From an uncultured Azospirillaceae bacterium (GTDB lineage Bacteria; Pseudomonadota; Alphaproteobacteria; Rickettsiales; UBA3002), in assembly GCA_964352815.1 (NCBI GenBank), contig CAYGTO010000005.1, forward strand, positions 7,904 through 71,903: a stretch of DNA of 64,000 bases, given 5' to 3'. The position numbers and the translations under genes are program-made. Position 1 is the first letter of the stretch. Every line of letters begins with the position of its first letter. Shown piece after piece: positions 7,807 through 60,979 of this stretch. Below the pieces are notes generated by a model. That model did not search any database and was not told the origin of the DNA. It saw only the letters and a program-made list of their open reading frames with translations.

Positions 7807-7890
7807 GTCATTCTCGACCGAGCCTAGCGAGTGTCGGGAATCTAATCGAGATAGATCCCCGAGACGAACAGCAGTTCGCTCGAGGATGAC
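7807..7890 (+). repeat. GTCAT...ATGAC nested-hairpin element (84 nt), upstream flank of secG
   Basis: gtcattctcgaccg...cgggaatc-taatcgagata-gatccccg...ctcgaggatgac. The termini and centre are inverted repeats. Same subfamily as 8396-8476. Confidence 0.85.
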
Positions 7891-7908
7891 GGCAACTAAG
7901 GTAAGAAC

Positions 7909-8301
7909 ATGGAACTACAAACAATTTTACTCGCGCTGCATGTGGTTGTCACCTTGTTGATGATCGGATTTATTCTGTTGCAGAAAAGCAGCACTGATGG
8001 TTTTGGGCTTGGGGGCGGAAGTGGTGCAGGGCTGATGTCTGGGCGCCAGACGGCGAATTTTATGACGCGCACTACGGGTATATTGGCGGCCATCTTTATG
8101 GCGAATAGCTTGTTGCTCTCTATTCTAGCGGCCAGTGACCGTGGGACCTCGATTCTGGATGAAGCGCCGACTGCAGTGATCGAAGGGCAAGAAGAGCTGG
8201 GTGTTCCGCTGGTGGGTGATGGCGAGACAGCGACGCAAGACGTTGCTCCTGTGAAAATAAAGGAAATGCCGAGTGAGCCTATAGTGCCGCTCGCGGAATA
8301 A
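7909..8301 (+). CDS. secG: preprotein translocase subunit SecG
   Basis: 130 aa. LLALHVVVTLLMIGFILLQKSSTDGFGLGGGSG is typical of SecG. Conserved tpiA-secG-pyrG order. Confidence 0.9.
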   Translation: MELQTILLALHVVVTLLMIGFILLQKSSTDGFGLGGGSGAGLMSGRQTANFMTRTTGILAAIFMANSLLLSILAASDRGTSILDEAPTAVIEGQEELGVPLVGDGETATQDVAPVKIKEMPSEPIVPLAE

Positions 8302-8350
8302 TTCGAAACTACTCCTTGCGCTCCCCTAAAAGCCGAGTTATACCTTATAT

Positions 8351-8368
8351 CCCGTAGCAACCTACGGG
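8351..8368 (+). terminator. possible weak intrinsic terminator after secG
   Basis: 7-bp stem cccgtag/ctacggg with loop caac, followed by gattt (short T run only). Confidence 0.25.
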
Positions 8369-8395
8369 GATTTCATGAGAGATTTGCAAATATTC

Positions 8396-8476
8396 GTCAT
8401 TCTCGACCGCACTGCTGTGCGTGTTGGGAATCTTATGTTAGATCCCCGAGATCGGCTAGGCCGACTCGAGGATGAC
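8396..8476 (+). repeat. GTCAT...ATGAC nested-hairpin element (81 nt), downstream flank of secG
   Basis: gtcattctcgaccg...tgggaatc-ttatgtta-gatccccg...ctcgaggatgac. Its terminal ATGAC supplies the ORF-track ATG of pyrG at 8472. Confidence 0.85.
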
Positions 8477-10142
8477 GGGGGGGCTCGTGAGTAAAACTTC
8501 CACCAAATTCATTTTCATCACCGGCGGGGTGGTCTCTTCGCTTGGTAAAGGCCTCGCATCGGCGAGCCTCGGCGCATTGCTGCAAGCGCGCGGTTATAAA
8601 GTCCGCCTGCGTAAGTTGGATCCGTATTTGAATGTCGACCCCGGAACCATGAACCCAACGCAGCATGGCGAAGTGTTCGTCACTGAAGATGGCGCGGAAA
8701 CCGACCTTGATCTCGGCCATTATGAGCGCTTCACCGGCGTGGATGCGAAAAAGTCCGATAATGTCACGACCGGTCAGATTTATTCCACCTTGCTCGCCAA
8801 AGAGCGCCGCGGCGACTATCTCGGCGGCACGGTGCAGGTCATCCCCCATGTGACGGATTTGATTAAAGATTTCGTCCTCAAAGACACGGAAAAAGAAGAT
8901 TTCGTCTTATGTGAGATTGGTGGCACCGTGGGCGATATTGAAGGGCTGCCCTTCTTTGAAGCGATCCGCCAGCTCGGCTATGAGCTGGGCCATGACCGGG
9001 TGATGTTTGTGCATTTAACGCTCGTGCCCTATGTGGCGGCTGCGAAAGAGCTGAAAACCAAGCCGACCCAGCATTCGGTGAAAGAACTACGCTCAATCGG
9101 GATTCAGCCCGATATGTTGCTTTGCCGCGCGGACCGTGAAATTCCGATGAGCGAGCGCAAGAAAATTGGCCTGTTCTGTAACATCCCGGAAAAATCCGTG
9201 ATTCAGGCGCTTGATGCCGATTCGATCTACCGCGTGCCGCGCCTACTGCATGAAGAGGGGATGGATGAGCAGGTGCTGGCGCATTTCAAGATGAAGTCGA
9301 AACAGGAGATCGATCTCAAGCCGTGGGACAAGATCACCAAGCGTTTCGAGGAGCCGCAAGGCGAGGTAACGGTGGCGATGGTCGGGAAATATGTCTCGAT
9401 CGGCGATACGTACAAATCGATCACCGAAGCGCTCGATCACGCAGGGATTGTCAATAATGTGCGCGTCCATGTGAAATGGATCAATGCGCGCGATTATAAA
9501 GGCGCGGCGATTCATAAGGCGCTGAAGGGCGTCGATGCGATTTTGGTGCCGGGCGGTTTTGGCGAGCAGGGGGTGAGCGGCAAGATTGCGGCGGTCACCT
9601 ATGCGCGCGAGCATGGGATTCCCTATTTCGGTATTTGCTATGGCATGCAGCTTGCGATCACGGAGATGGCACGGAATCTAGTCGATCTTAAAGATGCGGG
9701 CTCGGTGGAATTCGGAGCAAAAGAGACAAGTGACAATCGTGGGCCGCTGATTGGCTTGCTGACTGAATGGATGCGCGGCAGTGAGCTGGAAACTCGCGGT
9801 CATGATGATGATATGGGTGGCACGATGCGCCTCGGCGCCTATCCGTGTGAGCTAAAAGCTGGTTCGCTCGCGGCGAAAGTCTATGGCGAGAAGAAAATTT
9901 CCGAGCGCCACCGCCACCGCTATGAGGTGAATGTAGCGTATATTCAGGAGCTTGAGGCGCAAGGCGCGGTCTTCTCGGGCATGTCTCCCGGCGGCCAGCT
10001 GCCCGAAATTGTCGAGCTGAAGAAGCACCCCTGGTTCATCGGCGTGCAGTTCCACCCTGAATTCAAATCCCGCCCCCACGCCCCACACCCGCTCTTTGTA
10101 AGCTTTGTGAAAGCGGCGAAGGGGATGCAGACAAAGAAATAA
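8472..10142 (+). CDS. pyrG: CTP synthase
   Basis: [15 protein letters not shown] at the N-terminus and GATase GICYGMQ with HPEF at the C-terminus. The true start may be GTG 8487 (preceded by GGGGGG), because the ATG at 8472 belongs to the repeat terminus. Confidence 0.95.
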
Positions 10143-10152
10143 ATTACAGCGA

Positions 10153-10180
10153 TTGTTTTTTCCTCATTTTTTGGTATGAT
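10153..10180 (+). promoter_or_regulatory. putative sigma70-type promoter with extended -10
   Basis: TTGTTT (10153-10158), 16 nt, then TGgTATGAT (TG 10172-10173, TATGAT 10175-10180), about 30 nt upstream of the small ORF at 10210. Confidence 0.3.
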
Positions 10181-10209
10181 GTGCGTGTTATACAAAGAAA
10201 GGTATTCTT

Positions 10210-59099: not shown

Positions 59100-59106
59100 T
59101 ACACTC

Positions 59107-59190
59107 GTCATTCTGTGGCGAGCATAGCGAGAGCACAGAATCTGATGGAAAGATCCTGTGCAGCCTGCTATCGCAGTCTCACAGGATGAC
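59107..59190 (+). repeat. GTCAT...ATGAC nested-hairpin element (84 nt)
   Basis: gtcattctgtg...cacagaatc-tgatggaaa-gatcctgtg...cacaggatgac. All four arms are variants of one 8-mer. Confidence 0.85.
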
Positions 59191-59206
59191 AATGAAAGGA
59201 AGTGAT

Positions 59207-59560
59207 ATGAAACTGCACGGAATCAAGAATTGTAACACGGTGAAAAAAGCGCTCGACTGGTGCGATACGCAGGGGCTGGCTTATGAATTCCATGACTACA
59301 AGAAGCAATCGCCCGATGAGGCGGTGCTTAAAAGCGCGATGGAGAAATGGGGCTGGGAAAAAGTGATCAACCGCGCCGGGATGACGTGGCGGAAGCTGAG
59401 TGATGATGAGAAAAATGCGGTGAATGATGATGCGTCTGCGATGGCGCTGGCGATGGAGAAACCGTCGGTGATTAAGCGGCCGATTGTGACGGATGACAAT
59501 GGCGCGCCGATGGTGATGGGCTTCAAAGACGCGGAGTATGAAGCGGTGCTTTCCTCTTAA
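59207..59560 (+). CDS. yffB: ArsC/Spx-family reductase-like protein (YffB type)
   Basis: MKLHGIKNCNTVKKALDWC N-terminus, with AAGGAAG SD before ATG 59207. The ORF-track ATG 59186 is the terminal ATGAC of the repeat. Confidence 0.75.
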   Translation: MKLHGIKNCNTVKKALDWCDTQGLAYEFHDYKKQSPDEAVLKSAMEKWGWEKVINRAGMTWRKLSDDEKNAVNDDASAMALAMEKPSVIKRPIVTDDNGAPMVMGFKDAEYEAVLSS

Positions 59561-59562
59561 CT

Positions 59563-59716
59563 GTCATCCTCGGGGCTTTTGTTAGTAGACAAAAGAGCCC
59601 GGGGATCCAGAATCAAAAGGTCAGGAGACCTTTTGATATTCACTGATGTCTACTGACATCAATGAACTAGATTGCCTGGATGCGCTCGCTTGCTACTTGC
59701 TTACCGTGGCAATGAC
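59563..59716 (-). repeat. compound 154-nt element, left inverted copy flanking nadA
   Basis: gtcatcctcgggg[cttttgt-tagtag-acaaaag]..ggggatccagaa[tcaaaaggtc-agga-gaccttttga]..[ttcactgatgtc-tact-gacatcaatgaa]..gattgcctgg...ccgtggcaatgac. Confidence 0.85.
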
Positions 59717-59808
59717 ACTAATCTTACATTCCCGTCATCAAATATTAATTGCGGAAACTTTTTTTCGCGTCATAATGTCAAATATAGTTAATATTCTGGC
59801 AAAGGTTA

Positions 59809-60813
59809 ATGACTGAGATTACGCCACAGTCGAACGATCGTTCAGCTATCACGCCTGCAATTCCACGTGATTTGGAAGGTGAGATTGATCGCCTGCGCAC
59901 GGAAATGAACGCAGTCATTTTGGCTCATTACTATCAAGAGGACGAGATTCAGGACATTGCCGACTTTGTGGGTGATTCGCTCGATCTCTCGCGTAAGGCG
60001 GCGGCGACGGATGCGGATGTGATCGTGTTTTGCGGTGTTAAATTCATGGCGGAAACCGCAAAAATTTTGAGCCCAGAGAAAACGGTGCTACTTCCGGATT
60101 TGAAGGCAGGGTGTTCGCTTGAAGATTCCTGCCAACCAGAGAAATTCAAAGCGTTTCGTGAGGCACACCCGGACCATCTCTCGCTGACCTACATCAATTG
60201 CTCGGCCGAGGTGAAAGCGCTATCGGATATTATTGTGACTTCGACGAATGCGGAACATATCATCAACCAAATTCCCGAAGACCAGCCAATTTTGTGGGCA
60301 CCGGATAAATTTCTCGGCGGCTATTTGGCGAAGAAAACGGGCCGTGAGATGCTCTTGTGGGACGGGACATGTATTGTGCATGAGCGTTTTTCTGAACAGG
60401 AATTAGTGAAACTTAAAACCCGCCATGCAGGCGCGCATGTAATTGCGCATCCGGAGTGCCCCGAAGCATTGCTGAATCATGCGAACCATATTGGTTCGAC
60501 CTCCTCCTTGCTGAAATTCACAGAAGAACGCCCGGGTGAAGAATTCATCGTGCTGACCGAGCCAGGGATTCTGCATCAGATGGAGCTGCGCTCGAAAGGC
60601 AGCACTTTTTATGATGTGCCCGGCGCGATGGATTCGGGCTGTGTGTCGTGTAATCATTGCCCTTATATGAAAATGAATACGATGGAAAAGCTCTATCTCT
60701 GTATGGATCAGCGCGCGCCAGAGCTCACGCTTTCTCCCGAGCTTATCACAGCGGCACATAAGCCACTTGCGAAGATGTTAGAGATGTCGCAAGATATCCC
60801 GATAAAGAAATAA
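59809..60813 (+). CDS. nadA: quinolinate synthase
   Basis: 334 aa with ILAHYYQ, VHERF and conserved Cys ligands (C..CxxC..). Confidence 0.93.
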
Positions 60814-60824
60814 CACATTATTTT

Positions 60825-60979
60825 GTCATTGCCACGGTAAGCGAGCAGATAGCGAGCGCATCCAGGCAATCCATTCCATTGATGTCAGGAGACATCAATG
60901 GAAATAAAAATGTCTTCTGACATTTTTATTCTGGATCCCCGGGATCTTTTGTCTTGCTGACAAAAGCCCCGAGGATGAC
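60825..60979 (+). repeat. compound 155-nt element, right inverted copy flanking nadA
   Basis: gtcattgccacgg...ccaggcaatcc..[ttccattgatgtc-agga-gacatcaatggaa]..[ataaaaatgtc-ttct-gacatttttat]..ggatccccggg..[cttttgt-cttgctg-acaaaag]ccccgaggatgac. Its architecture is the reverse complement of 59563-59716. Confidence 0.85.

Follow-up and report, generated by a model that had tools for sequence, protein, structure and literature searches.

The closest described relatives of the repeats reported here are found in Neisseria. Chenal et al. (Nat Commun 2025, PMC11893778) define the Neisseria Transformation Sequence (NTS), a degenerate Ssn-related motif (SRM) and SsnA, a single-domain GIY-YIG nuclease of 94 amino acids. 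The NTS (CGTCATTCCCGCGMAVGCGGGAATCYRG) contains the dRS3 repeat, ATTCCC-N8-GGGAAT, and occurs in Neisseria in an NTS-ssnA-NTS gene architecture. SsnA binds the hairpin as single-stranded DNA only and not the RNA version of the motif, and it cuts a few nucleotides upstream; the C directly 3' of the palindrome is the most crucial base for binding, while the three nucleotides 5' govern cleavage (PMC11893778). Rickettsia is among the SRM-rich genomes in the same work, and Neisseria also carries NIMEs, short RS segments flanked by dRS3. We examined a 64,000-nucleotide stretch of DNA, called the window in what follows, from an uncultured Azospirillaceae bacterium (assembly GCA_964352815.1, contig CAYGTO010000005.1, positions 7,904 to 71,903), in which a family of GTCAT...ATGAC repeats recurs. 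We find that each of these elements is very probably an inverted pair of SRM hairpins of the NTS/dRS3 type, a twin with the architecture of an SRM-ssn-SRM cassette that lacks its gene and resembles a NIME.

Each element comprises a left half that reads GTC-AT-stem-loop-stem-AT-C, a spacer, and a right half (GAT...ATGAC) in which a half of the left type stands in reverse complement. When the four arms of the 12 copies were aligned on anchors, GTCAT, ATC, GAT and ATGAC were the sole invariant columns, so that the constant flanking pentamers of the initial annotation held for GTCAT and ATGAC, whereas its GAATC and GATCC vary. The position directly outside the element is palindromic (-1/+1, C..G or T..A). 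The spacers measure 3–62 nucleotides, rather than the 8–10 given earlier, and the inverted pairs stack into arrays at 55386-55699 and 57186-57469. Like the SRM, an inverted repeat of 20–50 nucleotides that can fold into a hairpin, and like the NTS, the elements carry GTC(A/T)(C/T) directly 5' and C directly 3' of the hairpin and are dispersed, clustered repeats; since the invariant GTC and C of the window are the positions that SsnA needs in Neisseria, we assign them to the SRM kind. They also share with the described system that the same hairpin types stand on both sides of ssn-like genes and that the nuclease lineage co-varies with the hairpin type. The window differs in that its intact hairpins all form gene-less inverted pairs, except for one, that no ssn gene lies within the 64 kb, and that one copy sits in frame inside a gene.

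The paper of Chenal et al. (PMC11893778) was the full-text match for strings of the GTCATTCCCGC type. The dRS3 sequence itself has one site in the window (58637-58656; 0.17 expected by chance), and the stems of the other copies differ from it. The canonical 26-mer was 100% identical in records of N. gonorrhoeae, Azospirillum, Sphingobium, Sphingomonas and Photobacterium from a plasmid collection, and in N. gonorrhoeae it occurs in the same twin form (CGTCAT...ATCC, 55 nucleotides, GAT...ATGACG). As a separate observation, the 26–27 nucleotides of GTCATTCCCGCGAAGGCGGGAATCCA are 100% identical across Alpha-, Beta- and Gammaproteobacteria; most of these matches lie without an annotated feature, and two lie under protein-coding annotations. 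The initial annotation could not assign the family, and had named a match to an already described element as what would undo its novelty. The design is that of the SRM and of the Neisseria NTS, dRS3 and NIME repeats, and the same hairpin types flank GIY-YIG ssn genes; the elements thus match a described family and the claim of novelty falls. With NIMEs they share inverted hairpin repeats around a short variable spacer and stacked intergenic arrays adjoining particular genes. They differ from NIMEs in belonging to another bacterial class, in having at least six stem sequences instead of one, in class II/III hairpins that are not dRS3, and in showing no link to filamentous phage or pilin loci in the window.

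We scanned the window with a strict pattern (GTCAT + 6-nucleotide arm ... arm + ATC ... GAT + arm ... arm + ATGAC) in which each of the two stems had to form five or more of its six pairs. This gave 8 copies, whereas 30 dinucleotide-preserving shuffles gave 0.03 on average and never more than 1. By inspection there were 12 clear twin elements and another 5 degenerate or partial ones (Table 1). The copies listed in the initial annotation were present at their coordinates, and each of the 6 intergenic gaps from 55.3 to 61.0 kb holds a copy, as it had said. Two of its entries change: 57766-57862 sits within coding sequence and not in a gap, and 13906-13963 is a truncated chimera. The units at 55472-55615 and 57213-57362, set apart before as GTCAT-less, are indeed related, but as degenerate copies of the same kind of element and not as a separate kind. 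The family is also wider than the window: related copies were found in about 25 related loci of metagenome-assembled genomes (MAGs). Finally, short-read contigs from the same species match the window with 0 mismatches, and four of their six ends lie within elements, as would be expected if the elements are repeated across the genome.

The hairpins fall into classes according to their stems. We collected them from the window and 55 related loci by a rule that treats both strands alike (GTCAT, three Watson-Crick pairs, ATC); stem positions 4 and 5 were both Watson-Crick in 58 hairpins (class I) or a tandem G·A/A·G in 19 (class II). The mirror tandem, T·C/C·T, was found 0 times against these 19, and six decoy anchors gave no tandem mismatches. 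Hairpins with at least five Watson-Crick pairs numbered 58 at the GTCAT/ATC anchors and 0–4 at the decoys. The non-Watson-Crick asymmetry falls on the GTCAT-reading strand of both halves, i.e. on opposite DNA strands. The same holds for the T·G wobble of the elements at 7807 and 8396: the stem of 7807-7890 is Watson-Crick, with one T·G on the forward strand of each half, and the stems of 8396-8476 are identical to it, with different loops and second-tier stems. A strand test of single G·T against A·C in a looser hairpin set was not significant, decoy anchors there giving 55–80 hits against 144. Non-Watson-Crick pairs that are specific to a strand speak for a separate hairpin on each DNA strand and against a single nested fold, and the asymmetry fits hairpins formed on single DNA strands better than it fits one RNA fold.

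We then considered the genes that carry the same hairpins elsewhere. In relatives, taken as the syntenic pyrG-linked loci of MAGs at 70–79% PyrG identity, there were six GIY-YIG genes (95–131 amino acids), and the three that were scanned all match PF01541 (E 2e-16 to 4e-14). Each of the six is immediately preceded by GTCAT-hairpin-ATC and has GAT-hairpin-ATGAC at its other end, at the stop codon or beyond it. Together with 80 metagenome loci they form a set of 86 ssn-like genes, 81 of which have both flanks on the contig. A forward hairpin lies upstream in 62 of 83 genes, an inverted one downstream in 72 of 84, and both are present in 54 of 81. The two ends of a cassette always share their class (I/I in 37, II/II in 13 and I/II in 0 cases), and the nearest Ssn protein neighbour has the same hairpin class in 65 of 79 cases (mean 47, maximum 61 in 2000 label shuffles). 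The arm types of the window recur as ssn flanks: TCTGAG/CGAAGA in the loci L048, L087 and L093, CTCGAA...GGAGAG in L105, TGCGAG...GGCAATC in L102 and L135, CCTGTG in L028, and TCCCGCG in L054 and L025. The L025 locus also has a gene-less twin with the same ends as that genome's own ssn cassette. In their architecture the window elements thus correspond to several types of Ssn cassette without the gene, and the arm differences are those of several SRM classes, each with its own Ssn lineage, and not free compensatory drift of one RNA structure. Separately, in L028 (15580-16000) an ssn cassette lies upstream of lpdA, the first 45 nucleotides of lpdA being duplicated on its left with three synonymous differences, and it looks as if this cassette arrived with a donor copy of the lpdA start.

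This association bears on a further explanation, that the repeats are REP or REPIN elements maintained by a RAYT (a Y1 transposase like that of IS200/IS605) elsewhere in the genome. The formal likeness to REP, BIME and REPIN elements seen in the initial annotation is real: the twin inverted hairpins are REPIN-like, intergenic and clustered, they lack target-site duplication as in IS200/IS605, and both kinds have strand-specific hairpins, a short conserved 5' tag and a small nuclease gene flanked by its own repeats. The partner enzyme, however, is GIY-YIG and not a Y1 (HUH) transposase, and it is this gene, not a RAYT, that the same hairpins flank in 54 of 81 cases. As reported before, the window has no RAYT, IS200-like or other transposase gene according to tblastn and a Pfam search of about 55 open reading frames (ORFs), a search that also gave no Y1 transposase. 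REP hairpins carry a conserved 5' GTAG tetranucleotide, whereas the conserved 5' bases here are (C/T)GTCAT. We therefore regard a RAYT-dependent family as extremely improbable.

Table 1. Coordinates and make-up of the twin elements and their relatives in the window.
Feature	Position	Strand	Details
Twin element, tpiA-secG gap	7807-7890		Halves 7807-7842 (forward on +) and 7854-7890 (forward on -); 11-nt spacer
Twin element, secG-pyrG gap	8396-8476		Halves 8396-8432 and 8441-8476; short-read contig L003 starts inside
Twin element, pyrG-kdsA gap	10353-10452		Halves 10353-10390 and 10415-10452; extended hairpins, inner flanks ATCCAG...CTGGAT
Truncated chimeric remnant	13906-13963		Left end approximately of 60825 type (GTCATTGCCACG), right end approximately of 7890 type (CGAGGATGAC), as read from the sequence
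Class II twin 3' of pdhB	16531-16621		Halves 16531-16567 and 16585-16621; tandem G·A/A·G after 3 Watson-Crick pairs
Degenerate relatives	21385-21520		Contains 21463-21491 (minus strand), a GTCAC...GTC variant
Class II twin 3' of thiC	55386-55471		Halves 55386-55425 and 55446-55471
Degenerate twin, GTCAT lost	55472-55615		Within a direct repeat of ~250 bp, 55428-55680, recurring at 57169-57420
Class II twin, 3-nt spacer	55616-55699		Halves 55616-55660 and 55664-55699
Orphan right-hand class II hairpin	57186-57212	-	Forward on minus strand, GTCATCCTGAGCGCATGCGAAGGATC; copy of 55446-55471
Second copy of degenerate twin 55472-55615	57213-57362		~76% identical
Chimeric twin	57363-57469		Halves 57363-57413 and 57430-57469; outer arms mismatch, left TTCGAAC, right CCTGAGG (on its forward strand)
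In-frame twin, GTCATTGCGAG...GGCAATC type	57766-57862		Inside S9/DLH-family hydrolase gene 57569-58555
Class I twin	58557-58659		Right half 58636-58659 is the canonical NTS/dRS3-type hairpin (ATTCCCGCTTTCGCGGGAAT)
Class I twin, TCTGTG/CCTGTG stems	59107-59190		Halves 59107-59142 and 59152-59190
Composite twin of 154 nt, 5' of nadA	59563-59716		Two unlike end hairpins around two extra hairpins, loops C-AGGA-G / C-TACT-G; contig L001 starts inside
Inverted second copy of the 154-nt composite, 3' of nadA	60825-60979		Contigs L001 and L002 end inside

The initial annotation had described nested hairpins with co-varying arms, and it was right that the stems vary while pairing is kept, as both possible pairing schemes exceed shuffles in the 12 copies: nested pairing fills 83.7% of the cells (shuffle mean 69.3%) and side-by-side hairpin pairing 72.5% (shuffle mean 59.4%), none of 500 shuffles reaching as high in either case. 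The nested excess is largely a by-product, since the right half repeats the left one in inverted orientation and the arms therefore match across the element. In the three stem positions that adjoin AT, 67 of 72 cells (93%) are paired under the hairpin scheme, with clean Watson-Crick covariation, against 53 of 72 (74%) under the nested scheme, which has recurrent U·G or A·C there; at deeper stem positions the nested scheme pairs better than the hairpin scheme. With DNA energy parameters, each half forms a hairpin of its own in 7 of the 12 copies; four copies, the class II copies among them, prefer the nested fold. The halves of class II copies look non-complementary only when G·A pairs are left uncounted. 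With regard to the loops, a half with a long AGCG-rich loop (GAGCGNAGCGAG / GCGCAGCG motifs) is on the left in 8 of 9 asymmetric copies (7807, 16531, 55386, 55616, 57363, 57766, 59107 and 60825, versus 59563); a long loop on the left agrees in sense with the neighbouring genes and with the G-rich strand, a possible orientation bias in a small sample.

The nested pairing is one of the reasons to ask if the elements act mainly as RNA, with a nested hairpin that serves as terminator, mRNA 3'-end stabiliser or processing site in the manner of REP/BIME elements. Most copies lie between co-directional genes, 1–15 nucleotides past a stop codon and 8–20 nucleotides before the next start, so they are probably transcribed, and the folds of the whole elements are stable (-29 to -68 kcal/mol with RNA parameters). 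On the other hand, terminator-like sites were no commoner than expected (6 against 6.0), and the elements are not followed by T-tracts. The Rfam comparison proposed in the initial annotation gave no family at gathering score over the whole window, and none on the elements at E<=1 in 55.3-61.1 kb. Moreover, the G·A and T·G pairs lie on the forward strand of both halves, which would leave a single transcript with one good and one poor hairpin, and the nuclease described in Neisseria fails to bind the RNA form of its motif (PMC11893778). With terminators not enriched, Rfam empty and the pairing strand-asymmetric, a mainly RNA-level role is not favoured and we consider it unlikely; an RNA effect is possible as a side effect. 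Outside the elements, at 57097-57146, 3' of a gene with RTX calcium-binding repeats and DUF4214, two GC-rich stem-loops are followed by a T-run; their weak Rfam match to Whalefall-1 (19.3 bits, E 0.2) is below the gathering score, and the site is most likely an ordinary terminator with a chance match.

Several results weigh against the assignment of the elements to gene-less SRM cassettes. The published SRM search pattern, HGTCWYN(0-2)YYVSBRHN(0-5)WNVSBRGN(0-2)RNCYNB, matches the window only at 21463-21491 (minus strand), and in the window and related loci together it hits 26 of the 58 hairpins of class I and none of the 19 of class II; most window copies fail it because their loops are long (up to 27 nucleotides) or their stems have tandem G·A. 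The NTS pattern comes closest at 58633-58660, with 2 flank mismatches where at most 1 is allowed. No ssn or other GIY-YIG gene was detected in the window (tblastn; Pfam on the same ORFs), nor an ssn gene on the source contig among the top 120 homologues of the L048 Ssn. The GIY-YIG proteins of the relatives are candidate Ssn proteins by their PF01541 match and their size. Under energies that count only Watson-Crick pairs, class II/III halves are weak hairpins and the whole element then prefers the nested fold. Finally, direct repeats that could represent target-site duplications were no commoner than chance in the flanks of 54 cassettes and 12 twins, and Ssn is not known to have a transposition mechanism.

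We compared orthologous gaps, as the initial annotation had proposed, and found elements in different gaps in different relatives, with presence and absence at the same site. The synteny from tpiA to lpd is conserved, and in most relatives the corresponding gaps are short and hold no element. The tpiA-secG gap measures 5–50 nucleotides in most relatives and 108 here, where it holds an 84-nucleotide element, and the secG-pyrG gap is mostly below 120 nucleotides in relatives and 170 here. The twin at 57766-57862 adds 33 amino acids (SLRGSASDRGNLPQDDATPHEIATHPSDARNDD) in frame to a hydrolase, between the N-terminal strands and the core fold. This insertion is absent from seven homologues of the hydrolase, including P0007/L085 (73% identical in the alignment), which has an empty site; another homologue, P0006/L084 (68% identical), has another twin, a canonical one of class I, in this place. 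We observed there (L084, 1790-1900) a canonical GTCATTCCCGCG twin followed by a relic right end of window type, GCTCGCAATGAC, at the codon position of the GTCATTGCGAG-type twin of the window, a sequence arrangement that suggests that one element replaced another at the SRM. A full-text search for GTCATTGCGAG returned only irrelevant primer matches.

An in-frame copy recalls the Rickettsia palindromic elements (RPEs), selfish palindromes that insert in frame, a likeness also seen in the initial annotation and borne out by this one coding insertion. Membership of the elements in RPE families would agree with a host clade labelled Rickettsiales, with the 33-amino-acid insertion kept in a conserved hydrolase and with element lengths of 81–155 nucleotides, similar to RPEs; both are palindromic repeats of alphaproteobacteria so labelled, in which an in-frame copy is tolerated in an enzyme surface loop. 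But the coding insertion is exceptional in the window family (1 of 12 copies, the others being intergenic), and translations of nine copies/frames had no hit at E<=10 to NCBIfam, which includes RPE domain models. We thus judge membership in the RPE families very unlikely. RPEs may themselves be built on SRMs, Rickettsia being listed as SRM-rich (PMC11893778).

The repeats also bracket genes. The RTX/DUF4214 gene (55991-57052) lies between direct repeats of about 250 bp (55428-55680 and 57169-57420; 76–81% identity), which are built from SRM halves and the degenerate twin, and the GC content is 0.60 over 56–58 kb versus about 0.48–0.53 in most of the window. The arrangement resembles that of a cassette gained or swapped at SRM arrays. 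Similarly, nadA is bracketed by inverted copies of a 154-nucleotide composite with four hairpins, and chimeras of different arm types occur at 57363-57469 and 13906-13963. The composite forms a subfamily of its own (59563-59716 and 60825-60979 in the window, L025:9814-9961 and L009:16109-16225); the L025 copy has wholly different stems with the same loop motif (C-AGGA-G on one strand, C-TCCT-G on the other), a clean compensatory change.

These bracketed genes, the two chimeras and the replaced element in L084 could also be taken to mean that the repeats are attachment or recombination sites of a site-specific recombinase, with cassette exchange at the arrays, as dRS3 is for the integrase of the Neisseria filamentous phages Nf/MDA; dRS3 is a known phage integration target. 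In the window, though, the ORFs searched with Pfam include no integrase or IS110/Piv-type gene, and use by a recombinase would be a secondary use of SRMs and not an alternative identity, so we give this explanation little probability. Among other mobile elements, classical MITEs are alike in having terminal inverted repeats that are the same as those of a gene-carrying partner (L025), in their small size and in their presence or absence at orthologous sites, and different in that here there is no target-site duplication and no DDE transposase, and each terminal repeat is itself a hairpin. Integron attC sites were rejected as well: the window has no integrase, and the conserved ends are GTCAT/ATGAC, from which attC core sites differ.

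Apart from the repeats, we observed a nucleotidyltransferase/HepT-like (MntA/HepT-type) toxin-antitoxin pair at 19192-19503 and 19500-19868, within the pyruvate dehydrogenase cluster, between the E2 gene (17343-18674) and lpd (19834-21273). In the same cluster, between pdhA and pdhB, an ORF of 128 amino acids without Pfam match (15129-15515) ends one base before the pdhB-like ORF (15517-16515); it may encode a small protein of its own or an N-terminal domain that has been split off. No tRNA genes were found in the window.

For the twins as SRM hairpin pairs we propose the following mechanism. The working unit would be one hairpin per DNA strand, GTC-AT-stem-loop-stem-AT-C, formed while that strand is in single-stranded form, as it may be in replication, transformation or conjugation. 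If the enzymes of Neisseria and Wolbachia are taken as a guide, a putative cognate Ssn (about 95 amino acids, GIY-YIG) would bind the hairpin, for which it would need the C just 3', and would cut the single strand a few nucleotides 5' of GTC. A twin would in this way receive one cut just outside each end, on opposite strands. The elements may persist or spread with the help of this activity, as non-autonomous companions of ssn cassettes, or else through recombination between SRMs, and the consequence would probably be a modulated recombination of incoming single-stranded DNA, as in Neisseria. That an Ssn acts on the window copies in the source organism is likewise an inference.

With this assignment, no new system is needed to account for a conspicuous repeat family of an uncultured alphaproteobacterial lineage: the repeats are very probably recognition hairpins of Ssn nucleases, a family that was characterised only in 2025, so far only in Neisseria and Wolbachia. 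Modestly new details are the gene-less twins in an alphaproteobacterial lineage, the in-frame coding insertion, and the class II hairpin with tandem G·A, overlooked by the published motif. As the published SRM pattern misses all class II and over half of the class I hairpins, surveys that use it undercount. The ends and the nuclease gene co-vary by class and so provide ready nuclease/hairpin pairs for probing new single-stranded-DNA specificities, while a test of the mobility of Ssn cassettes calls for evidence such as the gene-less twins, the empty orthologous sites, the replacement at one site and the in-frame insertion. More tentatively, and with the odds against it, the twins could be genuine mobile elements of a non-autonomous kind that Ssn mobilises in trans, SRM-ssn-SRM being a new class similar to insertion sequences (IS), with several co-evolving nuclease/hairpin groups. 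If this is true, it would be an IS-like class without a DDE, HUH or serine/tyrosine enzyme and without target-site duplication, in which one specificity group would use a hitherto unrecognised tandem sheared G·A hairpin that makes folding strand-specific. Twins could then capture or bracket genes (RTX/DUF4214, nadA), take each other's place at SRM sites, as in L084, and enter proteins in frame, and they might underlie the RPEs of Rickettsia.

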